Origin: Squalus acanthias
Taxonomy: Eukaryota
Direction of reading: 5' to 3'
Assembly: GCA_030390025.1 (NCBI GenBank)
Contig: CM059453.1
Coordinates: forward strand, 7,316,001 to 7,380,000
Length of the DNA: 64,000 bases
Position numbers and translations under genes: made by a program. Below, piece by piece: positions 1 through 64,000 of the stretch (positions within the stretch are counted from its first letter, which is position 1; every line of letters begins with the position of its first letter). The notes under the pieces were generated by a model. That model did not search any database, was not told where the DNA came from, and saw only the letters and a program-made list of their open reading frames with translations.

Positions 1-161
1 TGAGTTCAAGTGTAACATTGAAAAGAAACAATGTTCCCTCCTGCTAACGGCTATCAGGAGGAGTGATCAGGGTAAATACCAACTCAGAATCGAGATCGCT
101 TCGGCCATATATATTAATAGACCTCGGCCTCTGCATGCTGAGGTATTTCTTTCTGTTTTAG
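1..161 (+). CDS. Gene A V-set Ig exon (3' part)
   Basis: Frame from nt 2 reads EFKCNIEKKQCSLLLTAIRRSDQGKYQLRIEIASAIYINRPRPLHAEVFLSVL, donor G|GTGAGT at 161/162. Siglec hallmarks: E-strand CSL, no F-strand Cys, DxGxYxxR with Arg codon AGA at 86-88. Confidence 0.9.
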
Positions 162-329
162 GTGAGTTTTCCCTTTGTTCCTTTTGTACATTTTCACTCC
201 AGTGCTTCAGTACGATTCAACCTATGTGCAAACTTGCCAAATATTATAATATCCCTGACCGATCTCAACCGGTAGTTGAAACATAGGGTGCAGGGATACT
301 GATAAGTGTCGCAGATGTCTGATATCCGA

Positions 330-1600
330 AACAGAGATGTATATTGAAATTACAGCAGTAAAACAGGCCGTTCGGCCCAGAGACTCAGTGTGGCTGTTTG
401 TCCTTCACATGAGCAACACTCCGAATCGCATGTGCCTGCTCAGTTCCCATATCCCTTTATTGCAATTCCCTTCCAACACCTGTCGAACCTATTCTGAAAA
501 TGTCCACATGAGGATAGATTAGTACTTGTTGACTGAACCTAAAACTGACGTTGTTGGTCGTACATACAATACATTAACTAGCAGCTCATTATTTCCAATG
601 AAATGAAAGGCAATTAAACTAGGTCGGTTGCTAGAGTGGGTGACTTATCTGGAATGAGAGATTTGACCAGGGCGGACATTTCAAATTCTACTTCAGTCTC
701 CTTCTATCGCCTCTGTCCCGTTGCTTAATAAATTTAAGCACTTCTGTCAAATCATCACAAAATCATTTTTAAACTCATAAGATCTGCAATTTTTAACTAT
801 TTTCTTCTAATTTAAATGTTCTCATACCTGCAAGAAACTACGTGAATCCACCCTAAATCCTTCCTATAGACTGGAACCCCATACCCGCATTCTTACTCCA
901 ACTGTGAAATAACTGCTGTTCGCGTTAGAATCTCCACTAATCTCGAATTTATATTATTGATCTCCTACCATTAAACCCAGAGCTCCAGAAACATCTTCAT
1001 ACACTTTCCCACTGGAGGTGCTACTTTTACTGTCTCATGAACCTGACCCCAAATTCCTCTGCTCTTCCACTTCTCCCAGCTTCCTACGGTTCAAATGAAC
1101 ATCTACCACCTCATATTTTCTGAACTTGAATTATATCTGCCTCTTATGTCCCCATTCTACTATATATCCAGTAGCCGTTTGTAACTCCCTTTTGTTGTCT
1201 CGTTATTTCCTGGGAGTTGTACTTGCAACTTTTTCATGAGTGTCAAACTTGCGATATTGGATACGCCTCTCATTGTACAAAACGCCCAATTTTCATTTTG
1301 TTGGAATCTAAATAAATCCTAACGGGAAATTTGAACATCATTCTATTTAGCGCCATCTCCAAGTTATTGATGCACCCAGTGAGTTGAAGCAATCCCACAG
1401 CACGACTCTTTGGGACACCGAACTCGGATCCAACTATTCTGAGCAACTGCAATTAACGGCGACTCACTGCATCCTCCCTTCTAAACTGTTTGTTTTGCAA
1501 CTTTTACATTATCTTTAATTCCAAACCTCTTAATATCTTCTCCAATAATCTCCTGTGTTTACCGTCGGCAATGGCTTCCTGATTACATTTCAAGTTACTT
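330..1600 (-). mobile_element. Old degraded CR1-type LINE fragments in gene A intron
   Basis: Minus strand shows degraded RT-region motifs (GSEFGVPKSRAVGLL at 1270-1452) and a LINE-like 3' end near 340-400; shared with the paralogous intron at 63.2-64 kb. Confidence 0.55.
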
Positions 1601-1857: not shown

Positions 1858-2169
1858 AAACGCCACATATTTCAAGTTATGGCGTTCTGATCGCTGGAAA
1901 AACTGCACGACTGACCTGCTCCATCAGACACAACTGCCCGAATGGCAACCTTCAACTGAAGTGGATTAATTATAATGTGTCCCTTCCTCTTCAATGGGAT
2001 ATACAAGAAGGAGTACGAATGATCAAAGAACGTTCAGGTTCTCGGACAGTTTCATCCGTGCTGACCTTCACTCCATCATCTGCTCATCACGGGAAAATTC
2101 TGGGATGCACAATTCTAATTGATGGTATCCCAGCTCCTTCAGCACAAAATCTTATCTTGGAGATTAAAT
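1858..2169 (+). CDS. Gene A C2-set Ig domain 2
   Basis: Acceptor TTTTAATAG|, donor T|GTAAGT. LTCSIRHNCP...LKW...SVLTFTPSSAHHGKILGC matches the Siglec/MAG domain-2 pattern, including the extra Cys for the D1-D2 disulfide. Confidence 0.92.
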
Positions 2170-2755: not shown

Positions 2756-3012
2756 ATGGATTGGAAATCCCAACCGTCAACTCCTCTATAGTAGCTGTGA
2801 AAGGAAGTTCATTATTATTGTACTGCACGGCCTGGGGGAAGCCCCTGGTCAGCTTAAGTTGGGTGAAAAATGGTGAAGAGACCAGCAGGTCTTCCACTGG
2901 TGAACTAAAGCTGATATTCCACAACATTCGTTCTGAAGACGCGGTGAATATTGGTGCATAGCTGAAAATGCCCTGGGCACCTCAAAACGTTCCACACAGA
3001 ATTCAGTACATT
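2756..3012 (+). pseudogene. Gene A C2-set Ig domain 3 exon with 1-nt deletion
   Basis: Acceptor TTCAG|, donor T|GTAAGT, length 257 nt (not a multiple of 3). Reads ...LYCTAWGKPLVSLSW...IRSED, then after GC at 2941-2942 resumes as GEYWCIAENALGTSKRSTQNSVH in another frame; the uncorrected frame hits TAG at 2959-2961. Confidence 0.9.
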
Positions 3013-3937: not shown

Positions 3938-4225
3938 ATAAAGCCACAATTTTAGCAGGCCCGACATGCACCAACTCTGAAAATTGGACGAATTGTAACT
4001 GCCGGATGAGAGCCAATCCCCCGGGAAACATCACGTGGGGCCTCAATGGGAGAATCCTCACTGGGGACAGGTCAGATGTGGAAATCATCTGCTGGGCGGT
4101 GAATAGTCTCATCATGGAGAGCTCCCTGAGATTGACTCACCCAACTGGAACCGGAAACCTGATCTCATGTGTTGCAGCAAACGAGCACGTTGATTCTGTC
4201 AGTAAATACCAGCTCCACTCTAAGG
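3938..4225 (+). CDS. Gene A membrane-proximal Ig domain 4
   Basis: Acceptor TTTTTAG|, donor G|GTACGT, 288 nt. GPTC...CNCRMRANPPGNITW...ISCVAANEH resembles the membrane-proximal domain of MAG and several CD33-related Siglecs. Confidence 0.9.
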
Positions 4226-5049: not shown

Positions 5050-5143
5050 GAATATTCTCCAGGACAATTCTTCTCATCATCAGAGGAGGAGCCAGTGGGA
5101 TGTTGTTACTAATTGCAGTCGTGCTCCTGCTGAAGATACAAAG
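5050..5143 (+). CDS. Gene A transmembrane exon
   Basis: Acceptor CTTTTTTAG|, donor AG|GTATGA. In phase with exon 4: GIFSRTILLIIRGGASGMLLLIAVVLLLKIQ(R). Confidence 0.85.
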
Positions 5144-7944: not shown

Positions 7945-8092
7945 AGAGACGATCACCTGAGCCTCGCAATCGACTCAACCAGCTCAGAATGAAGAAATTG
8001 TGAACGTGACTGTCAATGTCTCACACATCCGCAATCATGAATCATATAGCCCAAATAAGAAGACCTGCGATTAGGCACCAATTAAACATAAG
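7945..8092 (+). pseudogene. Gene A fossil terminal ITIM/ITIM-like exon
   Basis: Acceptor TTACAG| at 7944. Frame from 7982 reads AQNEEIV[N]VTVNVSHIRNHESYSPNKKTCD[*]APIKHK; removing the LINE at 8093-8639 joins it to TGA at 8647-8649. Confidence 0.7.
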
Positions 8093-28720: not shown

Positions 28721-29515
28721 GGTAATGCATTTGGGGAGCGCTAACAAGGAAAGGGAATATACATTAAATATTAGGACACTGAATAGTGTAGAGGAACAAA
28801 GGGACCATGGAGTGCATGTCCACTGAACCCTGAAGGAAGCAGGCCAGGTAGATGAGGTGGTTAAGAAGGCATACGGAATGCTTGCCTTTATCAGCCGTGG
28901 CATAGAGCACAAGAGCAGGGGGGTTATGCTTCAACTGTACAAAACACTAGTTAGGCCTCAGCTAGAGTACTGCGTGCAGTTCTGGTCAGCACATTATAGG
29001 AAAGATGTGATTGCACTACAGAGGTTACAGAGGAGATGTACAAGGATGTTGCCGGGAGTAGAGAATCTTAGCAATGAGGAAAGACTGGAAATGTTGGGTC
29101 TGTTTTCCTTGTAACAAAGGAGGCAGACGGGAGACCTTATAGAGCTGTATAAAATTATGAGGGGCACAGATAAAGTGGATAGAAAGGACCTATTTCCCTT
29201 AGCAGAATGATCACAAACCAGGGGACACAGATTTAAAGTAATTGGTGGAAGGTTTAGAGGGATTTGAGGGGAAATGTCTTCACCCACAGTGTTGCGGGGT
29301 TCTGGAACTCACTGCCTGAAAGGGTGGTAGAGGAAGGAACACTAACCACATTTAAAAAGTACTTGGATGTGCACTTGGAATGCTGTAACCTGCAGGGCTA
29401 CGGACCAAGAGCTCGGAAGTGAGATTAGGCTGGATAGCTCTTTGTTGGCCAGCGCGGACACGATGGGCCGAAATGGCCTCCTCCCGTGCTGTAACATGCT
29501 ATGATTATATGACTC
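28721..29515 (+). mobile_element. CR1-type 3' fragment, array unit 1
   Basis: KKAYGMLAFISRGIE...RPQLEYCVQFW; GLFSL* stop shared by all four units. Confidence 0.9.
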
Positions 29516-30459
29516 TAAAAAGAAAGACATTGCATTTATATCGCACTTTTCACTACCACCGAACGTCCAAAGTGCTTTACAGCCAGTGAAGTTCTTTTGA
29601 ACTGCAGCAATTTTGCAATGTAAGCAACGCGGCATCCAATTAGCACTCAGCAAGTTCCCACAAACAGCAACGTGTTACCTCGGTCCTAAGCTCTGGAATT
29701 CCCTGCATAATCCTCGCCGCCTCGCTACCTCCTTTCCTCCATTAAGACATTCCTTAAAACCTACCTCTTTGACCAAGCTTTTGGTCACCTGCTCTAATTA
29801 ATCCTTACGTGGCTCGGTGTCAGTTTGTTTTTCTTAAAATACTCCTGTGCAGCGCCTTGGGAAGTTTTATGTCGTTAAAGGCGCTCTATCAATACAAGTT
29901 GTTGTTATTGTTGTTGTTGAGTAATTTAGGGAATTTGGTACAGATTCATGCCCCAGTTTGGTTTTAATGACTAGTTTAGGGACATTTTTTCTCACCCAGG
30001 TACTAGTTCTGTTTTTGACTAGTTTAGGGATGTGCGTTTAGGTTTGAGACCCAGTTTGGGTTTAATACTGCTGGTTGATATGAAGCATCTTCAGTTTCTC
30101 ACCCATTGTTCTCTTCTGATGTGCTGCTCCGCGGTGGGTTTGTTTACGGCTAGTGCGTGTAGCAGCTCCAGAGCAGAGGCGTGCAGAGCTCGGTTCTATT
30201 TAGAGCCCAAATAGTTGTGGTGACTGCAGGCCATCTGTGATGTCTTAGGGTATAAATCATTTTGGACAATTGAACCCGAATGAGGTTAATTGTGGTCAGG
30301 CAGCATCCGGTTATACATTGTGCTGTATTGTGAAATGACCTATAATGTTTGCAGCTTCATGTTTATGCTGTAATGTAAAGTGAGAGCCCATAGCATCCAT
30401 GTTAATAATATATGGAGATAACAAATAATACCTGCTGATAATTATCGCGCTATTAATTA

Positions 30460-30860
30460 ATCAGCTGTGACTAAAAGTCCAGAGACTTCAGCTCACATTC
30501 TGAGCTAGCACTTCATTGCAGTGCTGCACTGTCGGACGTGCTGTCTTTAAGATGAAACGATGAAGCTTGGCCCGTTCCGTCCTCAAGGTCGTCCTAAAAA
30601 TAAGAGCATGCCACTATTTCGAAGAAGAGCAGCAAATATCTCGGCGGTGTCCTGGGCCAATATTAATCCTTCAACCAACAAAACCAAAACAAATTATCCA
30701 GCTATTATCAGATAGCTGTTTGTGGGAGCTTGCTGTGCTCAAATGGTCTGCCACGTTTCATACATTACAAAAGTGACTACAGATCAAAAGTACTTAATTG
30801 GCGGTAAAACGTTTTGGGTCGTCCTGAGGTGATGAAAGAATCCATATAAATGTAACTTCT
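30460..30860 (+). mobile_element. Deu-domain SINE remnant in array (copies at ~35560, ~40645, ~45705)
   Basis: Homologous to 23730-24170. Confidence 0.6.
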
Positions 30861-31496
30861 TTCTTCCATTGTATCTTCTATGTTCTCCACTTAGATGTTG
30901 CTGCATGTGACGTTATTAACAAATCAATAACATCTTTATGCCACAATTACCCCTCTCCAGTACTAATAAAAGTTGCAAATTTATTTGATAAAACGGTTGA
31001 AAAACTTTGTCTTCACTTTCAGGCGCTGGCCGACCCGCGGTGTATTTCAAATTTTTTATCTATTTTTTTTAAGATTGGATTGCCTCTGCTGGGATTGTAA
31101 TATATTTCTTTCAAACAGAGACAAAAGCCATATTTGGTTCCTTTATCAGACACTAAGCATTGCATCCAGACCCATTCCACACAAAATATATTCCACCAGC
31201 CATCTCTAACTGTCAACTGCAACCCACTAGGCCATGAGGTCGCACATTCCCGCAGCCAAAAGACAGGACAATACATCAAAACCACCAATGCAGCGCAGTT
31301 CTGACTGATTCACAAAATGCTGCAGGGAATGGCTTTAGATGGTTCGGGTAGCATGTGGAATATGAACGGCATCTCTCACTCCCTGCATCCTCATTGTGTT
31401 TAATTTAAAGTTCGCCACATCAACTCCCACTTTCCCTCTATCCTTTCTCAAGATCTCCAATCAGTGAAGATCTACCGTATTCCCCCTCCCAACCTA

Positions 31497-33600
31497 GAAT
31501 CAAAGAATCATAGAATGGGTTACAGCACTGAAGGAGTACATTCGGCCCGTCGAGCCCGTGCCAGCTCTCTGCAAGAGCACTTCAGCTAGTCCCACTACCC
31601 CCGCCCTTTCCCCGTAGCCCTGCAATTCTTTTTTCCTAAAGTTACTCTGTCTGTTCCCTTTTGAAAGCCACGATTGAACCTTCCTCCACCACACTTTCAG
31701 GCAGTGCATTGCAGATCATAATCACTCGCTGCGTATAAAAAGTTGTCCGCATGTCGCCTTTGATTCTTCTGCCAATCACCTTGAATCTGTGTCTTCTGCT
31801 TCTCGATACCTTTCGCCAATGGGAACAGTTTTTCTCCATCTACTCGGTCTAGACCCCTCATGATTTTGAACACCTCTATCAAATCTCCTCTCAACCTTCT
31901 CTGCTGTAAGGAGAACAATCCCTGCTTCTCCAGTCTATCCACGTAACTGAAGGCCCCCATCCATGGAAGCCTTCTTCTCATCTTTTCTGCACCCGCACGA
32001 AGTCCTTCACATCCTTCCTAAAGTGCAGTTCCCAGAATTGTACACAATACCTCAGTTGAGGCCGAACCTGTGTTGTTTAAATCTTCAGCATGACTTCCTA
32101 GCATTTGAACTCTAAGACTCTATTTGTGAAGCCCAGGATCCCGTAGGCTTTTTAGTTGTTTAAACAGGATTCGCCTTTAACATGCCCGTGCTGGCTTTCC
32201 TTAATTATTCCACACTTGTCTTAGTGACTGTTAATTTTGTTCCAGATTATTGTTTCTAAAAGCTTCCCCACTACCGAGGTTAAACTGACTGGCATGTAGT
32301 TGCTGGGTTTATCCTCACATATTTTTTGAACAAGGGTGTAACATTTGCAATCTCCAATAATCTGGCACCACCCCCGTATCCAAAGAGGATCGAAAGATTA
32401 TGGACAGTACCTCCGTGATTTCCACTTTTCCTTCCCTCAGCATCTTAGGATGCATCCCATCCGGTCTTGTTGACTTATCTACTTTAAGTACAGCCAGCCA
32501 TTCTAGTACCTCCTCCTTCTTAATTTTTATCCCATCCAGTAGCTCACTACTTCCTCTTTTACCACGAATTTGGCAGCATCTTCTTCCTTGTTAAAGGCAG
32601 ATGCAAAGTACTCATTTAGTTCCTCAGACATGCCCTCTGCCTCCTTGCGTACTTTTCCATCTTGGTCCCTAATCAGCCCCACCCCTCCTCTTACTTTCCG
32701 TTTACTATTTATATGCCTATTCAACACTTTTGAAATACCTTTTATGTTAGCTGCCAACCTATTCACATATTCTCTCTCTGCCCCTCTTATTTCCTTTTAA
32801 ACTTCCCCTCTGAATTTTCAATATTCAGCCTGGTTCTCACTTGAATTCTCAACCTGACAGCTGTTATACGTGTCCTTTTTCTATCCATCTTACTCACTGT
32901 CTCTTTCGTCACCCACGGAGCTCTGGCTTTGGTCGGTCTACCTTTCCCCCTCGTAGGAATGTACCTCGACTGTACCCGAACCACTTCCTCTTTAAAGGCA
33001 GCCCAATGTTCGATTACAGTTCTGCTTGCCAATATTTAATTCCAATTAACCTGGCCCAGATCCATTCTCAACCCACTGAAATTGGCCTTTTTCCAATTAA
33101 GTATTTTTAATCTAGATTGCACCCTGTCCTTTTCCCTTGCTAATCTAAACCTTCTGATACTGTGATCACTTTTCCCTAAATGTCCCCCTACTAACACTTG
33201 CTCTACTTGACCCACCTCATTCCCCAGAACCAGATCCAGCCATGCGTCCTTCCTCGTTGGGCCAGAAACATCCGGATCAAGAAAGTTTTCCTGAACAGAC
33301 TATAGAAATTCTTGCCCCTCTCTGCCCTTTACACTATTACTATCCCAGACTATATTAGGAAAGTTGACGTCCCCCATTATCAATACTCTATATTTCTGGC
33401 ACCTCTCTGTAATTTCCCTGCAAAGTTGCTCCTCTATATATTTCCCACTGGTTGGTTTCCTATAGAATAAAACTAGAATTGCAATGGCACCTCTATTATT
33501 ACTCAACTCTAATCAAATATATTCTGTCCTTGGCCCTCCAGGATATCCTTTCTCTCCATTACTGTAATATTCTCCTTGTGCAATTCTGCCACCCACCACA
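31497..33600 (-). mobile_element. RT-deleted CR1-type LINE, array unit 2
   Basis: Copy of the unit 1 element without the nested insertion. Confidence 0.88.
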
Positions 33601-33819
33601 TTTTTTTCCTTCCCTTCCTCTTACACTCTCGAGAAATGTAAAGATCAAACCTGTCCAAATCTAACTGATTTAGTTGTCTCAGCTTCATTTCTACTTTTCC
33701 CTACTTCAGCGGATTTCTCTCTGAAAGCGAAAACTACTGCTTAGCTACCCCAACTGTATAATTCCATTTCACAAGCTCATCTATTATTAGCGTTAATTTC
33801 TCTATTTTATCTAAAATAT

Positions 33820-34610
33820 AATGCATTTGGGGAGCGCTAACAAGGAAAGAGAATATACATTAAATATTAGGACACTGAATAGTGTAGAGGAACAAAGGGA
33901 CCTTGGAGTGCATGTCACAGATCCCTGAAGTAAGCAGGCCAGGTAGATAAGGTGGTTAAGAAGGCATACGGAATGCTTGCCTTTATTAGCCGTGGCATAG
34001 AGCACAAGAGCAGGGGGGTTATGCTTCAACAGTACAAAACACTAGTTAGGCCTCAGCTAGAGTACTGCGTGCAGTTCTGGTCACCACATTATAGGAAAGA
34101 TGTGATTGCACTAGAGAGGTTACAGAGGAGATGTACAAGGATGTTTCCGGGAGTAGAGAATCTTAGCAATGAGGAAAGACTGGAAAGGCTGGGTCTGTTT
34201 TCCTTGTAACTGAGGAGGCAGACGGGAGACCTTATGGAGGTGTATAAAATTATGAGGGGCACAGATAAAGTGGATAGAAAGGACCTATTTCCCTTAGCAG
34301 AAGGGTCACAAACCAGGGGGCACAGATTTAAAGTAATTGGTGGAAGGTTTAGAGGGATTTGGGGGGAAATTTCTTCACCCAGAGGGTTGCGGGGGTCTGG
34401 AACTCACTGCCTGAAAGGTTGGTAGAGGCAGGAACCCTAACCACATTTAAAAAGTACTTGGATGTGCACTTGGAATGCTGTAACCTGCAAGGCTACTGAC
34501 CAAGAGCTGGGAAGTGGAATTAGGCTGGATAGCTCTTTGTTGGCCGGCGCGGACACGATGGGCCGAAATGGCCTCCTCCCGTGCTGTAACATGCTATGAT
34601 TCTATGACTG
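33820..34610 (+). mobile_element. CR1-type 3' fragment, array unit 2
   Basis: ORFs 33952-34209 and 34234-34425. Confidence 0.9.
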
Positions 34611-36578
34611 TCAAAAGAAAGACATTGCAATTATACCGCACTTTTCACGACCGCCGAACGACCCAATGTGCTTTACAGTCAGTGAAGTTCTTTGGAAGTG
34701 TAGCAATTTTGCAATGTAAGAAACGCGGCATCCAATTGGCACTCAGCAAGTTCCCACAAACGGCAACGTGTTGCCGAGGTCCTAAGCTCTGGAATTCCCT
34801 CCATAATCCTCGCCGCCTCGCTACCTCACTTTCCTCCATTAAGACAATCCTTAAAACCTACCTCTTTGACCAAGCTTTTGGTCACCTGCTCTAATTTATC
34901 CTTTTGTGGCTCGGTTTCAGTTTGTTTGTCTTAAAATACTCCTGTGCAGCGCCTTGGGACGTTTTATGTCGTTAAAGCGCTATATCAATAAAAGTTGTTG
35001 TTATTGTTGTTGTTGAATAATTTAGGGAATTTGGTACAGATTCATGCCCCAGTTTGGTTTTAATGACTAGTTTAGGGACATTTTTTCTCACCCAAGTACT
35101 AGTTATGTTTTTGACTAGTTTAGGGATGTGCGTTTAGTTCTGAGACCCAGTATGGGTTTAATACTGCCGGTTCATATGAAGCATCTTCAGGTTCTCACCC
35201 ATTGTTCTCTTCTGAGGTGCTGCTCGGCGGTGGGTTTGTTTACGCCTAGTGCGTGTACCAGCTGCAGAGCAGAGGCGTGCAGAGCTCGGCTCTATTTAGA
35301 GCCCAAATAGTTGTGGTGACTGCAGGCCATCTGTTACGTCTTAGGGTGTAAGTCATTTTGGACAATTGAACCAGAATGAGGTTAATTGTGGTCAGGCAGC
35401 ATCCGGGTATACATTGTGCTGTATTGTGATATGACCTATAATTTTTGCAGCTGCATGTTTAAGCTGTAATGTAAAGTGAGAGCCCATAACATCCATGTTA
35501 ATAATATATGGAGATAACAATTAATACCTGCTGATAATTATCTCGCTATTAAGTAATCAGCTGTGACTGAAAGTCCAGAGACTTCAGCTCACATTCTAAG
35601 CTGGCACTTCATTGCAGTGCTGCACTGTCGGAGGTGCTGTCTTTAAGATGAAACGATAAAGTGTGGCCGGCTCCGTCTTCAAGTTCGTCCTCATAATAAA
35701 AGCATGCCACTATTTCGAAGAAGAGCAGCAAAGATCTCGGCGGTGTCCTGGGCCAATATTAATCCTTCAACCAACATAACCAAAACAAATTATCCGGCTA
35801 TTATCAGATAGTTGTTTGTGGGAGTTTGCTGTGCTCAAATGGTCTGCCACGTTTCATACATTACAAAAGTGACTACACATCAAAAGTACTTAATTGGCTT
35901 TAAAACGTTTTGGGTCGTCCTGAGGTGATGAAAGGCTGAATATAAATGTAACTTATTTCTTCCATTGTATCTTCCACGTTCTCCACTTAGATGTTGCTGC
36001 ATGTGACGTTATTAACAAATCGATAACATCTTTATGCCACAATTACCCCTCTCCAGTACTAATAAAAGGTGCAAATTTATTTGATAAAACGGATGAAAAA
36101 CTTTGTCTCCACTTTCAGGCTTTGGCCGACCCTCTGTGTTTTTCAACACTTTATCTCTTTTTATTAAGAATGGATTGCCTCTGCTGGGATTGTAACATAT
36201 TTCTTTCAAACAGAGACAAAAGCCATATTTGGTTCCTTTATCAGACAGTAAGCATTGCAACCAGACCCACTCCCACACAAAACATCTTCCACCAGCCATT
36301 TCTAACTGTCAACTGCAACCCACTAGGGCATGAGGTCACACATTCCCGCACCCAATGGACAGGACATAGATCAAAACCACCAGTGCAGCGCAGTTCTGAC
36401 TGATTCTCAAAATGCTTTAAGATGGTTCGGGTAGCATGTGGAATATGAACGGCATCTCTCACTCCGTGCATCCTCATTGTGTCGAATTTAAAGTTCGTCA
36501 CATCAACTCCCACTTTCCCTCTATCCTTTCTCAAGATCTCCAATCAGTGAAGCTCTACCGTATTCCCGCTCCCAACCT

Positions 36579-38690
36579 AGAATCAAATAATCATAGAATG
36601 GGTTACAGCACTGAAGGAGGACATTCGGCACGTCGAGCCCGTGCCAGCTCTCTGCAAGAGCACTTCAGCTAGTCCCACTACCCTAGCCCTTTCCCCGTAG
36701 CCCTGCAATTCTTTTTTCCTTAAGTTACTCAGTCAGTTCCCTTTTGAAAGCGACGATTGAATCTTCCTCCACGACCCTTTCAGGCAGTGAATTGCAGATC
36801 ATAACCACTCGCTGCGTATCAAAAGTTTTTCCGCATGTTGCCTTTGATTCTTCTGCCAATCACCTTGAATCTGTCTCTTCTGGTTCTCGACACCTTTCGC
36901 CAATGGGAACAGTTTTTCTCCATCTACTCGGTCTAGACCCCTCATGATTTTGAACACCTCTATCAAATCGCCTCTCAACCTTCTCTGCTCGAAGGAGAAC
37001 AACCCCTTTTTCTCCAGTCTCTCCACGTAACTGAAGGCCCCCATACATGGAAGCCTTCTTCTCATCTTTTCTGCACCCTCTCTAAGTCCTTCACATCTTT
37101 CCTAAAGTGCAGTGCCCAGAATTGGACACAATACCTCAGTTGAGGCCGAACCTGTGTTGTTTAAATCTTCAGCATGACTTCCTAGCATTTGAATTCTAAG
37201 ACTCTATTTATGAAGCCCAGGATCCCGTAGGCTTTTTAGTTATTTAAACAGCATTTGCCTTTAACATGCCCGTGCTGGCTTTCCTTAATTATTCCACACT
37301 TGTCTTAGTAACTGTTAATTTTGTTCCAGATTATTGTTTCTAAAAGCTTCCCCACTACCGAGGTTAAACTGACTGGCATGTAATTGCTGGGTTTATCCTC
37401 ACATTCTTTTTGGAACAAGGGTGTAACATTTGCAATTCTCCAGTACTCTGGCACCACCCCCATATCCAAGGATGATCGAAAGATTATGGACAGTACCTCC
37501 GTGATTTGCACTTTTCCATCCCTCAGCATCTTACGATGCATCCCATCCGGTCTTGTTGACTTATCTACTTTAAGTACGGACAGCCATTCTAGTTCCTCCT
37601 CCTTAACAATTTTTATCCCATCCAGTATCTAATTACTTCCTCTTTTACCACGAATTTGACAGCATCTTCTTCCTCGTTAAAAGCAGATGCAAAGTACTCA
37701 TTTAGTTCCTCAGACATGCCCTCTGCCTCCATGCGTACATTTCCATCTTGGTCCCTAATATGCCCCACCCCTCCTCTTACTTTCCGTTTACTATTTATAT
37801 GCCTATTCAACACTTTTGAAATACCTTTTATGTTAGCTGCCAACCTATTCACATATTCTCTCTCTGCCCCTCTTATTTCCTTTTACGGTTCCCCTCTGAA
37901 CTTTCAATATTCAGGCTGGTTCTCACTTGTATTCTCAACCTGACACATGTTATAAGAGTCATTTTTCTGCTCCATCTTACTCACTGTCTCTTTCGTCACC
38001 CAGGGAGCTCTGGCATTGGTCGGTCTACCTTTCCCCCTCGTAGGAATGTACCTCGACTGTACCCGAACCACTTCCTCTTTAAAGGCATCCCATTGCTCGA
38101 TTACAGTTCTGCTTGCCAATATTTAATTCCAATTAAACTGGGCCAGATCCATTCTCAACCCACTGAAATTGGCTTATTTCCAATTATGTATTTTTACTCT
38201 AGATTGCTCTCTGTCCTTTCCATTGCTAATCTAAACCTTCTGATACGGTGATCACTTTTCCCTAAATGTCCCCCTACTGACACTTGCTCTACTTGACCCA
38301 CCTCATTCCCCAGAACCAGATCCAGCCATGCGTCCTTCCTCGTTGGGCCAGAAACATACGGATCAATAAAGTTTTCCTGAACAGACTATAGAACTTCTTG
38401 CCCCTCTCTGCCCTTTACACTATTACTATCCCAGACTATATTAGGAAAGTTGAAGTCCGCCATTATCAATACTCTATATTTCTGGCACTTCTCTGTAATT
38501 TCCCTGCAAAGTTGCTCCTCTATATATTTCCCAATAGTTGGTGGCCTATAGAATACACCTAGAAGTGCAATGGCACCTCTATTATTACTCAATTCTAATC
38601 AAATAGATTCTGTCCTTGGCCCCGCCAGGATATCCTTTCTCTCCAGCACTGTAATATTCTCCTTGTGCAATTCTGCCACCCACCTCCTTT
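36579..38690 (-). mobile_element. RT-deleted CR1-type LINE, array unit 3
   Basis: ORFs 36799-37065, 37305-37541, 37613-37852, 38386-38592 (GVFYRPP, MADFNFP). Confidence 0.88.
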
Positions 38691-38903
38691 TTCTCCTTCC
38701 CTTCCTCTTACACTCTAGAGAAATGTAAAGCTCTAATCTGTCCAAACGTAGCTGATTGAGTTGTCTCAGCTTCATTCCTACTTTTCCCTGCTTCAGCGGA
38801 GTTCATTCTGAAAACGAAAACTTCTGCTTAACTACCCCAAATGTATAATTCCATTTCACAAGCTCATCTATTATTAGCGTTAATTTCTCTATTTTATCGA
38901 AAA

Positions 38904-39700
38904 GGTAATGCATTTGTGGAGCGCTAACAAGGAAAGGGAATATACATTAAATATTAGGACACTGAATAGTGTAGAGGAACAAAGGGATCATGAAGTGCGT
39001 GTCCACAGAACCCAGGAAGGAAGCAGGCCAGGTAGATGAGGTGGTTAAGAAGGCATACGGAATGCTTGCCTTTATTAGCCGTGGCATAGAGCAGAAGAGC
39101 AGGGGGGTTATGCTTCAACTGTACGAAATACTAGTTAGGTCTCAGCTAGATTACTGCGTGCAGTTCTGGTCACCACATTATAGGAAAGATGTGATTGCAC
39201 TGGAGAGGTTACAGGGGAGATGTACAAGGATGTTGCCGTGAGTAGAGAATCTTAGCAATGAGGTAAGACTGGAAAGGCTGGGTCTCTTTTCTTTGTAACA
39301 GAGGAGGCAGACAGGAGACCTTATGGAGTTGTATAAAATTATGAGGGGCACAGATAAAGTGGATAGAAAGGACCTATTTCCCTTAGCAGAAGGATCACAA
39401 ACCAGGGGACACAGATTTAAAGTAATTGGTGGAAGGTTTAGAGGGATTTGAGGGGAAATGTCTTCACCCAGAGGGTTGCGGGGGTCTGGAACTCACTGCC
39501 TGAAAGGGTGGTAGAGGCAGGAACACTAACCACCTTTAAAAAGTACTTGGATGTGCACTTGGAATGCTGTAACCTGCAGGGCTACGGACCAAGAGCTTGG
39601 AAGTGGGATTAGGCTGGATAGCTCTTTGTAGGCCAGCGCGGACACGATGGGCCGAAATGGCCTCCTCCCGTGTTTTAACTTGCTATGATTCTATGACTCT
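38904..39700 (+). mobile_element. CR1-type 3' fragment, array unit 3
   Basis: ORF 38990-39241. Confidence 0.9.
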
Positions 39701-41643
39701 AAAAAGAAAGACATTGCATTTATATCGCACTTTTCACTACCACCGAACGTCCCAATGTGCTTTACAGCCAGTGAAGTTCTTTTGAACTGTAGCAATTTTG
39801 CAATGTAAGAAACGCGGCATCCAATTAGCACTCAGCAAGTTCCCACAAACGGCAACATGTTGCCTCGGTCCGAAGCTATGGAATTCCCTGCATAATCCTC
39901 GCCGCCTCGCTACCTCGCTTTCCTCCATTAAGACAATCCTTAAAACCTACCGATTTGACCAAGCTTTTGGTCACCTGCTCTAAGTAATCCTTATGTGGAA
40001 AGGTGTCAGTTTGTTTGTCTTAAAATACTCCTGTGCAGCGCCTTGGGACGTTTTATGTCGTTAAAGGCGCTCTGTCAATACAAGCTGTTGTTATTGTTGT
40101 TGATGAATAATTTAGGGCATTTGGTACAGATTCATGCCCCAGTTTGGTTTAATGACTAGTTTAGGGATATTTTTTCCCACCCAGGTACTAGTTCTGTTTT
40201 TGACTAGTTTAGGGATGTGCGTTTAGTTCTGAGACCCGGTATGGGTTTAATACTGCCGGTTGATATGAAGCATCTTCAGTTTCTCACCCATTGTTCTCTT
40301 CTGATGTGCTGCTCCGCGGTGGGTTTGTTTACGCCTAGTGCATGTACCAGCTCCAGAGCAGAGGCGTGCAGAGCTCGGTTCTCTTTAGAGCCCAAATAGT
40401 TGTGGTGACTGCAGGCCATCTGTGACGTCTTAGGGTAAAAATCATTTTGGACAATTGAACCCGAATGAGGTTAATTGTGGTCAGGCAGCATCCGGTTATA
40501 CATTGTGCTATATTGTGAAATGACCTATAATGTTTGCAGCTTCATGTTTAAGCTGTAATGTAAAGTGATAGCCCATAGCATCCATGTTAATAATATATGG
40601 CGATAACAAATAATACCTACTGATAATTATCGCGCTATTAATTAATCAGCTGTGACTAAAAGTCCAGATACTTCAGCTCACATTCTGAGCTAGCACATCA
40701 TTGCAGTGCTGCACTGTCGGAGGTGCTGTCTTTAAGATGAAACGATAAAGCGTGGCCCGTTCCGTCTTCAACGTCGTCCTAATAATAAAAGCATGCCACT
40801 ATTTCGAAGAAGAGCAGCAAATATTAATCCTTCAATCAACATAACCAAAACAAATTATCCGGCTATTATCAGATAGTTGTTTGTTGGAGCTTGCTGTGCT
40901 CAAATATTCTGCCACGTTTCATACATTACAAAAGTGACTACATATCAAAAGTACTTAATTTGCTGTAAAACGTTTTGGGTCGTCCTGAGGTGATGAAAGG
41001 CTCAATATAAATGTAACTTCTTTCTTCCATTGTAGCTTCCACATTCTCCACTTAGATGTTGCTGCATGTGACGTTATTAACAAATCGATAACATCTTTAT
41101 GCCACAATTACCCCTCTCCAGTCCTAATAAAAGGTGCAAATTTATTTGATAAAACGGATGAAAAACGTTGTCTTCACTTTCAGGCGCTGGCCGACCCTCG
41201 GTGTTTTTCAACACTTTATCTCTTTTTTTTAAGAATGGATTGCCTCTGCTGCGATTGTAACATATTTCTTTCAAACAGAGACAAAAGCCATATTTGGTTC
41301 CTTTATCAGACACTAAGCATTGCAACCAGACCCACTCCCACACAAAACATATTCCACCAGCCATTTCTAACTGTCAACTGCAACCCACTAGGCCATGAGG
41401 TCACACATTCCCGCACCCAATGGACAGGACATAGATCAAAATCACCAGTACAGCGCAGTTCTGACTGATTCACAAAATGCTTTAAGATGGTTCGGGTAGC
41501 ATGTGGAATATGAACGGCATCTCTCACTCCGTGCATCCTCATTGTGTCGAATTTAAAGTTCGTCACATCAACTACCACTTTATGTCTATCCTTTCTCAAG
41601 ATCTCCAATCAGTGAAGCTCTACCGTATTCCCCCTCCCAACCT

Positions 41644-43755
41644 AGAATCAAAGTATCATAGAATGGGTTACAGCACTGAAGGAGGACATTCGGGACGTCG
41701 AGCCCGTGCCAGCTCTCTGCAAGTGCACTTCAGCTAGTCCCACTACCCGCGCCCTTTCACCGTAGCCCTGCAATTATTTTTTCCTTAAGTTACTCAGTCA
41801 GTTCCCTTTTGAAAGCCACGATTGAATCTTCCTCCACCACCCTTTCAGGCAATGAATTGCAGATCATAACCACTCGCTGCGTATCAAAAGTTTTTCTGCA
41901 TGTCGCCTTTGATTCTTCTGCCAATCATCTTGAAGCTGTGTCTTCTGGTTCTCGACACCTTTCGCCAATGGGAACAGTTTTTCTCCATCTACTCGATCTG
42001 GACCCCTCATGATTTTGAACACCTCTATCAAATCGCCTCTCAACCTTCTCTGCTCTAAGGAGAACAACCCCTGCTTCTCCAGTCTCTCCACGAAACTGAA
42101 GGCCCCCATACATGGAAGCCTAATTCTCATCTTTTCTGCACCCTCTCTAAGTCCTCCACATCCTTCCTAAAGTGCAGTGCCCAGAATTGGACACAATACC
42201 TCAGTTGAGGCCGAACCTGTGTTGTTTAAATCTTCAGCATGACTTCCTAGCATTTGAATTCTCAGACTCTATTTATGAAGCCCAGGTTCCCAAGGGCTTT
42301 TTAGTTATTTAAACAGGATTTGCCTTTAACATGCCCGTGCTGGCTTTCCTTAATTGTTCCACTCTTGTCTTAGTGACCGTTAATTTTGTTCCAGATTATT
42401 GTTTCTAAAAGCTTCACCACTACCGAGGTTAAACTGACTGGCATGTAGTTGCTGGGTTTATCCTCACATTCTTTTTTGAACAAGGGTGTAAGATTTGCAA
42501 TTCTCCAATAATCTGGCACCACCCCCATATCCAAAGAGGATCGAAAGATTATGGACAGTACCTCCGTGATTTCCACTTTTCCTTCCCTCAGCATATTTGG
42601 ATGCATCCCATCCGGTCTTGTTGACTTATCTACTTTAAGTACAGCCAGCCATTCTAGTACCTCCTCCTTATTAATTTTTATCTCATCCAGTATCTAATTA
42701 CTTCCTCTTTTACCACGAATTTGGCAGCATCTACTTCCTTGTTAAAAGCAGAAGCAAAGTACTCATTTAGTTCCTGAGACATGCCCTCTGCCTCCATGCG
42801 TACGTTTCCATCTTGGTCCCGAATCGGCCCCAACCCTCCTCTTACTACCCGTTTACTATTTATATGCCTATTCAACACTTTTGAAATACCTTTTATGTTA
42901 GCTGCCAACCTATTCACATATTCTCTCTCTGCCCCTCTTATATCCTTTTACACTTCCCCTCTGAACATTCAATATTCAGCCTGCTTCTCACTTGTATTCT
43001 CAACCTGAAAGCTGTTATACGTGTCCTTTTTCTGCTCCATCTTACTCACTGTCTCTTTCATCACCCAGGGAGCTCTGGCTTTGGTCGGTCTACCTTTCCC
43101 CCTCGTAGGAATATACCTCGACTGTACCCGAACCACTTCCTCTTCAAAGGCAGCCCATTGTTCGATTACAGTTCTGCTTGCCAATATATAATTCCAATTA
43201 ACCTGGGCCAGATCCATTCTCAACCCACTGAAATTGGCCTTTTTCCAATTAAGTATTTTTACTCTAGATTGCTCCCTGTCCTTTTCCATTGCTAATCTAA
43301 ACCTTCTGATACTGTGATCACTTTTCCCTAAATGTCCCCCTACTAACACTTGTTCTACTTGACCAACCTCATTCCCCAGAACCAGATCCAACCATGCGTC
43401 CTTCCTCGTTGGGCCAGAAAGATACGTATCAAGAAAGTGGTCCTGAACAGACTATAGAAATTCTTGCCCCTCTCTGCCCTTTACACTATTACTATCCCAG
43501 ACTATATTAGGAAAGTTGACGTCCCCCATTATCAATACTCTATATTTCTGGCACCTCTCTGTAATTTCCCTGCAAAGTTGCTCCTCTATATATTTCCCAC
43601 TGGTTGGTTTCCTATAGAATAAAACTAGAATTGCAATGGCACCTCTATTATTACTCAACTCTAATCAAATATATTCTGTCCTTGGCCCTGCCAGGATATC
43701 CTTTCTCTCCAGCACTGTAATATTCTCCTTGTGCAATTCTGCCACCCACCGCCTT
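41644..43755 (-). mobile_element. RT-deleted CR1-type LINE, array unit 4
   Basis: ORFs 41864-42130, 42370-42606, 42969-43391 (DLVL, SDH), 43452-43658. Confidence 0.88.
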
Positions 43756-43969
43756 TTTTTCCTTCCCTTCCTCTTACACTCTCGAGAAATGTAAAGATCT
43801 AATTTGTCCAAATCTAACTGATTGAGTTGTCTCAGCTTCATTCCTACTTTTCCCTGCTTCAGCGGATTTCTCCCTGAAAATGTTAACTTCTGCTTAGCTA
43901 CCTCAACTGTAAAATTCCATTTCACAATCTCATCTATTATTAGCGTTAATTTCTCTATTTTATCTGAAA

Positions 43970-44765
43970 GGTAATGCATTTGGGGAGCGCTAACAAGGAA
44001 AGGGAATATACATTAAATATTAGGAAACTGAATAGTGTAGAGGAACAAAGGGACCTTGGAGTGCATGTGCACAGATCCCTGAAGGAAGCAGGCCAGGTAG
44101 ATAAGTTGGTTATGAAGGCATACGGAATGCTTGCTTTTATTAGCCGTGGCATAGAGCACAAGAGCAGGGGGGTTATGCTTCAACTGTACAAAACAGTAGT
44201 TAGGCCTCAGCTAGAGTACTGCGTGCAATTCTGGTCACCACATTATAGGAAAGATGTGACTGCACTGGAGAGGTTAAAGAGGAGATGTACAATGATGTTT
44301 CCGGGAGTAGGGAATCTTTGCTGTGAGGAAAGACTGGAAAGGCCGGGTCTGTTTTCCTTGTAACTGAGGAGGCAGACGGGAGACCTTATGGAGGTGTATA
44401 AAATTATGAGGGGCACAGATAAAGTGGATAGAAAGGACCTATTTCCCTTTGCGGAAGGGTCACAAACCAGGGGGCACAGATTTAAAGTAATTGGTGGAAG
44501 GTTTAGAGGGATTTGGGAGGAAATTTCTTCACCCAGAGGGTTGCGGGGGTCTGGAACTCACTGCCTGAAAGGTTGGTAGAGGCAGGAACCCTAACCACAT
44601 TTAAAAAGTACTTGGATGTGCACTTGGAATGCTGTAACCTGCAAGGCTACTGGCCAAGAGCTGGGAAGTGGGATTAGGCTGGATAGCTCTTTGTTGACCG
44701 GCGCGGACACGATGGGCCGAAATGGCCTCCTCCCGTGCTGTAACTTGCTCTGATTCTATGACTCT
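43970..44765 (+). mobile_element. CR1-type 3' fragment, array unit 4
   Basis: ORFs 43974-44363 and 44388-44579. Confidence 0.9.
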
Positions 44766-47384
44766 AAAAAGAAAGACATTGCATATATATATCACTTTTC
44801 ACGACCACCGAACGTCCCAATGTGCTTTACAGACAGTGAAGTTCTTTTGAAGTGTAGCAATTTTGCAATGTAAGAAACGCGGCATCCAATTAGCACTCAT
44901 CAAGTTCCCACAAACGGCAACGTGTTGCCTCGGTCCGAAGCTCTGGAATCCCTGCATAATCCTCGCCGCCTCGCTACCTCACTTTCCTCCATTAAGACAT
45001 TCCTTAAAACCTACCTCTTTGACCAACCTTTTGGTCACCTGCTCTAATTTATCCTTGTGTGGCTCGGTGTCAGTTTGTTTGCTTTAAAATACTCCTGTCC
45101 AGCGCCTTGTTACGTTTTATGTCGTTAAAGGCGCTATATCAATTTTGTTATTGTTGTTGTTGAAAAATTTAGGGAATTTGGTACAGATTCATGCCCCAGT
45201 TTGTTTTTAATGACTAGTTTAGGGACATTTTTTCTCACCCAGGTGCGAGTTATGTTTTTGACTAGTTTAGGGATGTGCGTTTAGTTCTGAGACCCAGTTT
45301 GGGTTTAATACTGCCGGTTCATATGAAGCATCTTCAGTTTCTCACCCATTGTTCTCTTCTGATGTGCTGCTCCGCGGTGGGTTTGTTTACGCCTAGTGCG
45401 TGTACCAGCTACAGAGCAGAGGCGTGCAGAGCTCGGTTCTATTAAGAGCACAAATAGCTGTGGTGACTGCAGGCCATCTGTTACGTCTTAGGGTGTAATT
45501 CATTTTGGACAATTGAACCAGAATGAGGTTAATTGTGGTCAGGCAGCATCCGGTAATACATTGTGCTGTATTGTGAAATGACCTATAATGTTTGCAGCTT
45601 CATGTTTAAGCTGTAATGTAAAGTGAGAGCCCATAGAATCCATGTTAATAATATACGGAGGTAACAAATAATACCTGCTGATAATTATCTCGCTATTAAG
45701 TAATCAGCTGTGACTGAAAGTCCAGAGACTTCAGCTCACATTCTAAGCTAGCACATCATTGCAGTGCTGCACTGTCGGAGGTGCTGCCTTTAAGATGAAA
45801 CGATAAAGCGTGGCCCGTTCCGTCCTTAAGGTCGTCCTAAAAATAAAAGCATGCCACGATTTCGAAGAAGAGCAGCAAAGATCTCGGCGGTGTCCTGGGC
45901 CAATATTAATCCTTCAACCAACATAACCAAAACAAATTAACCAGCTATTATCAGATAGTTGTTTGTGGGAGCTTGCTGTGCTCAAATGGTCTGCCACGTT
46001 TCATACGTTACAAAAGTGACTACACATCAAAAGTACTTAATTGGCTGTAAAACGTTTTGGGTCGTCCTCAGGTGATGAAAGGCTCCATATAAATGTAACT
46101 TCTTTCTTCCACGTTCTCCACTTAGATGTTGCTGCATGTGACGTTATTAACAAATCGATAACATCTTTATGCCACAATTACCCCTCTCCAGTACTAATAA
46201 AAGGTGCAAATTTATTTGATAAAACGGATGAAAAACTTTGTCTTCACTTTCAGGCGCTGGCCGACCCGCAGTGTTTTTCAATATTTTACATATTTTTTTA
46301 TGAATGTATTGCCTCTTCTGGGATCGTAAATTTGTTTTCAAATAGAGACAAAAGGCATATCTGGTTCTTTAATCAGATTCTAAATTTTGGAAACTGGACC
46401 ACTCTCACCCACAACATATTCCACCGCTACCTCTTAGAGTCAACTGCAACCCATTAGGCAATGAGGTCAGACATTGCATTTCACTTTGGACTAGGCAAAC
46501 ATTAATAGCAGTAAGGCAGCGTATTTCTGAATAATTTGCACAATGTTGCAGGAAAGGGCGGTTAAGATGGCTTGGGTAGAATGTGGAATATTAATGGGTA
46601 GTTCTTGCACGCTCATCGTGTTGAATTCAGGGTTCATCAAAAAACCACCCACTCCAAACCTATTCTTACGCAAGTTCTCAAAACAGTGAAGCTCTTCCAT
46701 ACGCTCCTCTCCAATCTTCACTTCCACCTACAATCTAGAGATATTTAAAGCCATAGTCAGTCCTAATCAAACTCCTTGAGTTATCTCAACATCATTACAA
46801 CTTCATTGGGTTTCTCTGTGAAAACTAAAACGTTTACTTATCTATCCCCAATGACATCTTTCATTTCGCAAGTTCAATTCTTTCTACCATTACTTTCTCT
46901 ATTTGTTTCTTATCTTTTCTTGTTCACTGTGGCTTTTGTTTACTCTCTCTCGCACACTGTCTTCCTCTCCCTTTCTGTCTCTCTCACTCTCCGTATCTCT
47001 CTCAGTTTAGCAAAGATGGCATGGAGTTTGCGCTGGGGGTGCAATCAGGAAAATGCTCCCAGAATGCACTGAACACTGCATCGGCTTTGACGAGCTAAAG
47101 TTGCGATCAAGAGTTCACGAGAACTCATTAACATATGCCCAGGCGTAAACTTCCCCATGAATCAGCGAGCAGCTTAATTGATCAGAATCGATTTGTGTCT
47201 GGAACAGTGACATTTCTACAACATCACAAAGCGGGGCAGTGTTCCGAGGAAATAAGCCTCTCTGATTGGTCAATGAGGGTGACGTCTCACCAGTCAAATT
47301 CAAATGTCCAAAAGTGCTCCCTTTTTGAAGACGCACAAACAATAAAGTTCAAATTGTCAGTGATTGACAGGAAAAACATTTTTA

Positions 47385-56780: not shown

Positions 56781-57083
56781 AAACTCACGTCTTCCAGATC
56801 TTTAACCAGATTTTTGGATTACATATTCAGTAACATAACTCATTAGCTAACGTTCCCGATTGAATTATACACTCATTGGATTGAATATGAAGGTGCATCC
56901 AACGTGCTGAATTGTTACCAGTGGAAACAAGTAATCAGTTACTAAACTGCAGTAACATCGGCTGCTTAATATTTAACTGGACTGTGCCAGGATCTCCTCG
57001 AGAGTGTAACACCAAAATCATATGTTTCCATACATCGCAACTCTTTGACACAAACACGTTTCATACAGAAATGTTTTTTTTAG

Positions 57084-57376
57084 ATAAACCCAGAATAATA
57101 TCAAGTTCCAGCTGTACCAGCGCTGAGAATTAGACTGATTGTATCTGCAGCGTTTGAAGCATCCACCCCGCCCAGCAAACCTCACTTTGGTCTATAATGG
57201 GGGAATCATCACTGGGAACAGCCCACATGTCGAATGCATCTCCTGGACATTGAACAGTCACGTGGTGCAGCGTTCCCTGAGAATGGGTCACTCAACTGAA
57301 ACAGTAAAACTGATCTCATATGTTGCAGTTAACGAGCACAGTGTTACTGTTATCAAATATCAGCTCCATTCAGCAG
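57084..57376 (+). pseudogene. Orphan pseudo-exon paralogous to gene A Ig domain 4
   Basis: Acceptor TTTTTAG|ATAAA; KPRIISSSSCTSAEN*TDCICSV*, a frameshift, then PANLTL...ISYVAVNEH...KYQLHSA. Donor changed from GT to AT; downstream intron resembles 4230-4450. Confidence 0.88.
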
Positions 57377-57784
57377 ATACATTCTGAATTCACCTGTAAT
57401 TTAGATCATGTATAGATCTGGTCCATCAAGACCAGCCACTAAGCAAATGGTGTTATTTGCAGCAAAAAACAACTCAATTCAGCAGGAAAATATTGAGTTT
57501 ATCTGGAACTTAGATACTTGAAGGGGAGCTGGTCCATTAATGGCCGCTCACAGACTGAAGGCTGTGGTCGGGATTATTCCTTTTAAATATCAGTTTCCCA
57601 TCTGTTTGTAATTCTCAATATAGGAAGAACGTAATTAAATACCTGGGAGAGCCTCTGACCTTTAATAACATACATCTTTCTGAACTGATTTAAAACCTGA
57701 AGAAAATCAGATTTCTTCCTATGGTACTGTTAAAAAAAAATCAAATCATCGCTAAACAGCTAAACAGTGAAGTCACCCATTCCG

Positions 57785-61481: not shown

Positions 61482-61524
61482 ATGAGCACTTGCATGTTGT
61501 TTTCTCTCATGATATTGACCGAAG
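61482..61524 (+). CDS. Siglec-like gene B signal-peptide exon
   Basis: GCCATG context; MSTCMLFSLMILTE then G|GTACAT, phase 1, in frame with the exon at 62148. Confidence 0.8.
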
Positions 61525-62147: not shown

Positions 62148-62528
62148 CCTTTTGTAGTGTTCAATGTTCTGTTGTGATGCCAAAAGTTGTGTCGGCGGTG
62201 TTGGGTTCTTGTGCAGAGATCCCGTGTAAATTTGATAACATAGGCTACATCGCCAACCTGAACGGGCGGTGGATAAAGAGGAATCCTGGTCCTGGAACAC
62301 ACAATGACTCCATTATCTATGATTCGAATGATCCATTCAGGCAGCATTATAATTTTAGTGGCAGAGCTGAGTTCAAGGGCAACCTTGAAAAAAGACAATG
62401 CTCCCTCCTGATAAAGGATATCCGAAAGAGTGATGAGGGTGCATATCAGTTCATCACAGCCATCACCTCGGGCAGAAATTCTATAACACATCGCATTGCC
62501 CGTTCCGAAGTCTTTCTTTCTGTTTTAG
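62148..62528 (+). CDS. Siglec-like gene B V-set Ig exon
   Basis: Acceptor TTTTCTCAG|, donor G|GTGAGT, 381 nt open. MPKVVSAVLGSCAEIPCKF...W...GRAEFKGNLEKRQCSLLIKDIRKSDEGAYQFI has the Siglec Cys pattern. Confidence 0.93.
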
Positions 62529-62587: not shown

Positions 62588-63094
62588 CATAGAGTCACAG
62601 AGTTATAACGGCACAGAGGGAGGTTATTCGGAACATCGAGTGCGTGCCGGGTCTTTTTAGAGCAATCGAGTCAGTCCCATTTCCCCGCTCTATCCCCGTA
62701 GCACTGCAAGTTTATTTCCCTCAAGTGCCTATCCAGTCTCCCCTTGAAAACATTGAGTGTCTCCGCTTCCACCACTTCCGTCGGCAGCAAGTTCCAGGAC
62801 CTCACCACTCGCTGCGTTACAACGTTTTTACTCACATTCCCCCTGTATCTCTTGCCCAAAACCTGAATACTGTTTCCTGGTCCTGGTACCATCAACTAGT
62901 AGTAACAGCCTTTCCCCGTCTAGCCTATCCAAACCCGTCATAATATTGTACATCTCTATCAAATCACCCCTCAACCTCCTTTGCTCTAATGAAAACTAAT
63001 CCAGATTCTCTAAGCTGTCCTGTTAGTTAAGATCCCCCATCTGCCGGAACCATTCTGGTAAATCTCCTCTGCACCCTCTCCAGGGCCTTCACAT
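62588..63094 (-). mobile_element. CR1-type 3' fragment specific to gene B intron
   Basis: Minus ORF 62671-62895 (TQRVVRSWNLLP); absent at the homologous gene A position near nt 220. Confidence 0.88.
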
Positions 63095-64000
63095 CCTATT
63101 TGTAAAGTGGGCAATTTTTTTGATTTCTCTGGCCGAACATTAAGGTTAGTGGAAACATAGCGGACAGGGGTACTGATAAGAGACGCAGGCATTCATATAT
63201 TAAACACAGAGGTATATAGAAATTACAGCAGTAAATCAGGCCGTTCGGCACAGACAGCCCGTGTTGCTGTTTGTACTTCACATGAGCAACACTCCGAATG
63301 GCATGTGCCTGCTCAGTTCCCACATCTCTTTATTGCAATTCCCTTCCAACACCTGTCGAGCCTATTCTGAAATGTCCACATGAGGATACATTTACTAAGT
63401 GTTGACTGAACCTAAAGCTGACATTGTTGATCGTACTTATAATACATAAACCAGCAGCTCATTAGTTACAATGAAATGAAAGGTAATGGAACTAGGTTGG
63501 TTGCTAGAATGGGTGACTTGTCTGGAATGACAGTTTTAACCAGGGCGGCCATTTCAAATTCTATCTCAGTCTGCTTCTTTCTCCTCTGTCCAGATGCTTC
63601 AAAAGTTTAAGCACTTCTGTCAAATCATCCCAAAATCTCTTTTCGCCTAATAAAATCTGGCTCAATTTTTAAATAATTGTACTTCATCATACCAGACAGA
63701 AACTACGCGAATCAACCCTGTAGCCTTCCTATAGACTGGCGCCCAATACCCGTATTCTTACTCCAAATGCGAACTAACTACTGTTCTCTTTTGAATCGCC
63801 ACTAATCTCGAATTTATATTTCAGAACTCCTGCCATTAAACTCAGAGCTCCAGAAACATTTTCATACACTTTTACACTGGAGGTGCTGCTTTTACTGTCT
63901 TATGAAGCTGACCCCAAATTCCTCTGCTCTTCCACATCTCCCAGCTTCCTACGGTCCAAATTAACATCTACCACCTCATATTTTCTGATCTTGAATTATA
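63095..64000 (+). repeat. Paralogous copy of gene A intron (~221-1135)
   Basis: Collinear, roughly 85-90% identical by eye over 63210-63500 versus 335-620. Confidence 0.92.

Follow-up and report, generated by a model that had tools for sequence, protein, structure and literature searches.

In the spiny dogfish, Squalus acanthias, a large family of Siglec-like receptors most probably carries the fastest-diversified part of its V-set domain in a segment of 18 codons, which spans the end of the F strand, the F-G loop and the start of the G strand. Amino acid change in this segment runs at about twice the synonymous rate, likely as a result of selection on a predicted ligand-binding face, the ligand of which is probably not canonical sialic acid. 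Two members of the family, referred to as gene A and gene B, are found in the window, that is, the whole stretch of 64,000 nucleotides that was analysed. A fast-evolving V-set face is in itself an already known principle, as it is textbook knowledge for the mammalian CD33-related Siglecs. The analysis adds a case measured in a cartilaginous fish, for receptors that are mostly unable to use the canonical sialic-acid pocket, and the short list of codons involved allows the ligand question to be put to a direct test.

Gene Structure and Identity of the Family

The features of the two genes are presented in Table 1. In gene B, the Ig exons are open, the transmembrane (TM) segment is neutral, and the tail carries two ITIM-pattern motifs with a stop before the third motif. 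The insertion of about 500 nt in its intron was absent from the earlier description of this DNA.

Table 1. Features of genes A and B in the window, with the basis of each assignment.
Feature	Position	Strand	Basis or remark
Gene B F strand end, F-G loop and G strand start	62453..62506	+	Alignment, model, family site posteriors
Gene B V-set exon, phase 1-1, 381 nt	62148..62528	+	Open frame, AG/GT intact, Pfam V-set and Ig_CD22
Gene B predicted signal-peptide exon	61482..61524	+	ATG, hydrophobic, phase-1 GT donor; gene A upstream layout alike
Repeat insertion of about 500 nt in gene B V-C2 intron	62592..63091	.	Common to six gene-B-like copies (L001-L006)
Gene B V-C2 intron, neutral yardstick	63092..64000	+	Homologous to 218-1135
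Gene A V-set exon, 3' part	1..161	+	5' part precedes the window; locus L039
Gene A F-G segment	86..139	+	AGA codon (Arg) at 86-88, aligned to sialoadhesin R97
Gene A V-C2 intron block used in the earlier note	218..1135	+	Aligned to 63092-64000
Gene A second Ig exon, C2-type, intact	1858..2169	+	
Gene A third Ig exon, frameshifted	2756..3012	+	Single base missing near 2941-2942; lesion shared with L041 and L042
Gene A fourth Ig exon, intact	3938..4225	+	
Gene A transmembrane exon	5050..5143	+	Arg (5082-5084) within hydrophobic stretch
Gene A last cytoplasmic exon, decayed	7964..8092	+	ITIM Tyr lost, stop ahead of last motif

A genome search returned 133 matches (150 of 219 candidates were scored), most of which lie within a 2-Mb stretch of contig C30. 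Ninety loci with 91 V exons were taken, and weaker matches on other contigs were excluded. Removal of 35 exons with stops, frameshifts or a lost donor, and of two identical duplicates, left 54 unique intact exons, from the alignment of which two insertion columns were deleted.

The V exons of both genes exceed the Pfam cut-offs for V-set and Ig_CD22. Their closest solved relatives by sequence are sialoadhesin and MAG (E 1e-10 and 1e-7), and a Foldseek search with an AlphaFold model (mean pLDDT 83.7) places sialoadhesin/MAG folds at ranks 1-11. In this model, the 18 codons correspond to residues 102-119, with the F strand at 97-106, the F-G loop at 107-114 (pLDDT about 72) and the G strand at 115-125. 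The genes consist of a signal exon, the V exon, three further Ig exons, a TM exon and a tail; the Siglec-type order of an N-terminal V-set domain followed by C2-set domains is thus present according to Pfam, PDB and fold matches and the three further Ig exons, and gene B also has the single TM segment and ITIM-type tail. Within the 10 kb obtained per gene, 18 of the 35 genes of clade 1 contained the first ITIM exon. Among 63 database candidates, two relatives were matched, both of them shark proteins (from Heptranchias and Scyliorhinus) with ITIM-pattern tails; the catshark protein bears the NCBI label 'Schwann cell myelin protein-like'. A literature search, with subscription journals largely outside its coverage, found no paper on this shark family.

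Divergence of the Gene A and Gene B Segments

According to the sequence-only reading, the ungapped F-G segments of genes A and B share 3 of 18 residues and differ at 26 of 54 nucleotides, and the recount gave the same values. Hidden compensating indels were ruled out as the origin of this divergence, as a gapped realignment scored no better than the ungapped one. The flanks show 18 differences in 85 positions (1-85) and 2 in 21 (140-160). Intron identity, estimated earlier by eye at 85-90%, amounts to 86.5% over aligned bases (779/901), or 84% with gaps counted, when measured on the two intron blocks of Table 1. The segment pair is more diverged than the intron downstream, which has 151/984 differences (Fisher p=5e-8), and than the rest of the V exon (83/321; Fisher p=0.002), both p-values being uncorrected and referring to a window picked after it had been seen.

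The B-C loop, compared by means of the full gene A V exon obtained as locus L039, is equally diverged in this pair, with 2 of 12 residues identical and up to 24 differences in sliding 54-nt windows, against 26 in F-G. Moreover, the F-G dN/dS of the pair is 1.29 (Nei–Gojobori). The A/B pair alone proves little about selection.

Gene Conversion and the Intron Yardstick

Gene conversion, which is known in Siglec clusters according to the available part of one account (PMC6288428), could create a similar picture if the introns had been recently homogenised or if the F-G segment had been pasted from a more distant paralog. The Nei–Gojobori exon dS of the pair (0.54) lies well above the intron distance (about 0.15), a PHI-type test indicates some recombination (p=0.024 for the exon, 0.075 when flanks are included), and there are shallow conflicts between the trees of exon and intron. 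The sequence-only reading had itself named intron-only conversion as the circumstance that would undo its claim. This possibility, prompted by the dS of 0.54, was dropped once fourfold sites matched both introns. The high dS is due to multi-hit codons; at clean fourfold sites in otherwise identical codons, 6 of 28 differ, a small sample that nevertheless agrees with the downstream intron (p=0.42) and the upstream intron (301/1361; p=1.0). Between the gene-B clade and the main clade, divergence is 0.21 at fourfold sites, 0.16 and 0.21 in the introns, and 0.45 in F-G. The exon tree and both intron trees agree on the deep groups.

Segmental conversion, which had also been proposed from the sequence, finds no support either. 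None of the 91 exons is a donor for either F-G segment, and F-G distances track the rest of the exon. The nearest F-G neighbours of genes A and B belong to their own clades, and the next-nearest to gene B outside its clade has at least 22 differences in 54 positions among the 91 exons. Gene conversion in either form is therefore a very improbable source of the divergence.

Probable Diversifying Selection across the Family

The GY94/F3x4 codon models were run in an own implementation, not in PAML or HyPhy, and its M0 log-likelihood matched that of IQ-TREE; site posteriors are empirical Bayes values, and branch lengths were rescaled rather than re-optimised. Over the 54 exons, the M0 omega of the whole V exon is 1.0. 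The 2dlnL is 46 for M2a versus M1a, 45.4 for M8 versus M7 and 41.1 for M8 versus M8a, with 29% of sites at omega 2.1. Eight of 125 sites have a posterior above 0.95, and five of the eight fall within the 18 F-G codons; in columns of the V alignment, the top codons are 108, 110, 112, 113 and 116, plus 17, 44 and 52.

When dS is shared across the 54 exons, omega reaches 2.00 in F-G (LRT 37, p=1e-9), 1.44 in B-C, 1.66 in C-C' and 0.69 in the remainder. Selection extends to the B-C and C-C' loops, with omega 1.4-1.9 over the data sets, and the framework has an omega of 0.6-0.7. The shared-dS value for F-G is 2.09 in clade 1 (35 exons), 1.79 in clade 2 (19 exons; p=0.013) and 2.03 in the 16 genes whose four Ig exons are all open; a splice lesion affects the third Ig exon in three of these genes. 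When the eight exons that belong to the A and B lineages are removed, the value is 2.06 (LRT 34.5; 46 exons). Among 37 windows scanned, F-G has the highest omega. The earlier suggestion of diversifying selection is thus carried by the family, with an F-G omega of about 2.0, and not by the pair from which it was drawn.

The same contrast appears in a tree-free comparison, in which the diversity of F-G is 0.30, versus 0.15 +/- 0.04 in 44 intron windows; one of these windows is as diverse as F-G, and none is once four rows have been dropped, of which two are partly non-homologous upstream. With segment-specific trees, the 3' half has an LRT of 24.8 and the 5' half one of 9.95. In 40 simulations of neutral evolution with recombination, in which F-G was fully neutral and three different segment trees were used, none reached the observed omega of 2.09 and LRT of 29.5, the maxima being 1.47 and 9.3. 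The three other Ig exons have omega values of 0.81, 0.48 and 0.54, with M8 versus M8a p-values of 0.5, 0.06 and 0.04, against 4e-6 for the V exon in this comparison.

Relaxed Constraint and Local Mutation Rate as a Possible Alternative

The excess could also be ascribed to relaxed constraint combined with raised local mutation: the pocket would drift after the loss of Arg, many copies would be pseudogenes, and the CpG-rich loop would mutate faster. Relaxed constraint is indeed large in this family, since the whole-exon omega is 1.0, about 57-63% of V-exon sites are near neutral and 35 of the 91 exons are broken; with over half of the sites near neutral and over a third of the exons broken, drift in dying copies contributes as well. 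The F-G segment holds 4.5 CpG per 54 nt, compared with 1.1 in the intron. If the 18 codons are the sole source of the dS estimate, the F-G omega is 1.71 in the 54 exons (p=0.006), 1.50-1.66 in clade 1 (p=0.03-0.07), 1.45-1.61 in 25 main-clade exons (p=0.11-0.19) and 1.16 in the 16 intact genes (p=0.61). In the latter, the local synonymous rate, when left free, fits as 1.73x (p=0.071), and omega goes down to 1.16-1.27.

However, a free local synonymous rate is unneeded in the sets of 54, 35 and 19 exons (p=0.38, 0.38 and 0.97). CpG-poor F-G codons evolve as fast as CpG-rich ones (omega 2.14 vs 1.89), and the transition/transversion ratio of F-G is low rather than high (0.43, below the 0.55-0.71 of the intron). 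The excess is concentrated at codon positions 1-2, with a diversity of 0.31 and 0.37 versus 0.22, and the neutral simulations never attained the observed value. CpG hypermutation and double-hit mutations were each considered as the source of the signal, and neither removes the F-G excess; under a double-hit model, an LRT of 37.4 remains, with the same eight sites. Relaxed constraint with raised mutation is already disfavoured on these grounds and is an unlikely explanation, and selection on the exposed face is the preferred one.

Comparison with CDR3

The F-G loop occupies the same position in the V fold as the CDR3 of antibodies and T-cell receptors. The sequence-only reading had compared the segment to a CDR3-type hypervariable loop, and this comparison stands as far as topology is concerned. 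In contrast to CDR3, the shark F strand, F-G loop and G strand are encoded in a single unsplit germline exon, with no V-J split, the loop has an identical length in 54/54 intact exons, and selection also acts on the two remaining surface loops. The V(D)J-formed, length-variable F-G loop of a rearranging antigen receptor is thus not found in this family. A true CDR3-like device, with a loop diversified by rearrangement or somatic mutation, has the topological match between F-G and CDR3, also seen in the model, as the single point in its favour; with differences that are inherited by clade through the germline, it is hardly conceivable.

The Sialic-Acid Arginine

The first codon of the segment aligns with sialoadhesin R97 and encodes Arg (AGA) in gene A and Ile (ATC) in gene B. 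The canonical Arg is found in 7 of the 54 unique intact exons, including gene A, and is missing in 47, including gene B. By the F-strand Arg that is essential to a Siglec, the family as a whole does not qualify as one, and the Heptranchias and Scyliorhinus relatives are both without this Arg. Because Arg is gone from most copies, a canonical sialic-acid ligand is improbable, and the receptors probably bind something other than sialic acid held in the canonical way. In MAG, the sugar site comprises the CC' loop together with strands F and G, with R118 being essential, as stated in the available part of one structural source (PMC5150538). The term 'ligand-binding', used earlier for this face, is a prediction from Siglec homology, and the sialic-acid Arg is missing from most exons.

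The Arg codon is always AGA, a single base away from the codons seen in neighbouring clades, AGC (Ser) or AAA (Lys), so that Arg in the seven exons may have been regained rather than retained. All seven Arg-bearing V exons (L039, L041, L051, L053, L057, L058 and L066) belong to genes with a downstream frameshift or stop, the damage being a lesion in a later Ig exon. Elsewhere in the genome, further multi-copy Siglec-like V exons (L149-L175, on contigs C3542, C17, C3426 and C3486) keep the Arg in 7 of 8 read. Their F-G loops are visibly different, and they form a natural control family for the selection test.

Proposed Mechanism and Relation to Known Siglecs

Tandem, birth-and-death duplication would supply the gene copies, and point substitutions on the exposed face (in F-G most, then in C-C' and B-C) would be fixed because they change binding. 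The driver would most plausibly be a race with microbes that exploit ITIM-type receptors or are caught by them. A microbe-driven race is the usual explanation for the speed of Siglec V-set domains in the available parts of two accounts (PMC6288428, PMC13358205).

The mammalian CD33-related Siglec cluster, as portrayed in the available parts of these accounts (PMC6288428, PMC13358205), shares several features with the shark family: a tandem cluster with birth and death, a V-set domain that evolves more rapidly than the C2 domain next to it, an essential Arg that has been lost repeatedly, and ITIM-bearing and possibly activating forms. The shark family differs in a V domain that is closer to sialoadhesin/MAG than to CD33, in a far larger number of copies (91 V exons examined), and in the absence of Arg from 47 of the 54 intact exons instead of from a handful of members. 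CD33-related Siglecs are said to be missing from fish, a statement that concerns teleosts only in the available part of its source (PMC7226832).

Sialoadhesin (Siglec-1) and MAG (Siglec-4) are the best matches in both sequence and fold, and the gene A Arg takes the place of R97. Both are conserved single-copy genes with an invariant Arg, whereas the same face is the most variable part in the shark family. Judged from its sequences, the family appears to work like a CD33-related Siglec cluster; it lacks the Arg of a Siglec in most copies, and its similarity favours sialoadhesin/MAG. A more far-reaching and rather doubtful possibility is that a MAG/sialoadhesin-type lectin has become a germline repertoire of about 90 mostly Arg-less receptors with all three CDR-equivalent loops diversified. 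Such a repertoire would include inhibitory forms, activating forms (with a TM Arg) and truncated two-domain decoys, and would make up a far bigger, separately evolved equivalent of the CD33-related Siglecs for non-sialic microbial ligands. The comparison suggests an independent origin of large pathogen-driven Siglec-like clusters in sharks.

Transmembrane Types, Exon Loss and Genomic Surroundings

Two TM types occur in the family: a neutral type with ITIM tails and an Arg-bearing type, which makes up 8 of the 30 TM exons read and has tails that are partly decayed. Three more TM exons have an Arg on the neutral type. The tail Tyr is lost in L030, L031 and L039 and kept in L041 and L042. Arg-TM members beside neutral-TM members with ITIMs would represent a possible paired-receptor layout.

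In 34/34 clade-1 genes (loci L091-L124), the second Ig exon and its two splice sites are intact. As to the third Ig exon, 12 genes have it broken (by a stop, frameshift or insertion), 3 show a splice lesion and one lacks it, which amounts to about 9-10 independent losses; the fourth shows 2 lesions among 29 fully read genes. The pattern of third-exon damage suggests exon skipping or secreted V-C2 decoys. A third-exon lesion is present in 8/8 Arg-TM genes, and skipping is not evident in these genes, as the splice sites there are intact. Two presumed RNA runs labelled as the same species gave no contig on the V exon, and a third presumed RNA run, from another organism, yielded pieces of relatives that were confined to exons and showed no exon joint; these runs were left out of the evidence.

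Broken clade-2-type V exons recur 2-3.5 kb ahead of clade-1 V exons in near-identical blocks. The recurring pairs on C30 (L039b with L039, L078 with L041, L079 with L042, L083 with L030, and L087 with L031) point to multi-gene segmental duplication. Within the window, an orphan broken fourth Ig exon lies at 57074-57594, with no V or C2 exon nearby, and positions 26833-46701 hold a tandem array of about four 5.1-kb units with 90-93% identity and LINE-like reverse-transcriptase fragments.
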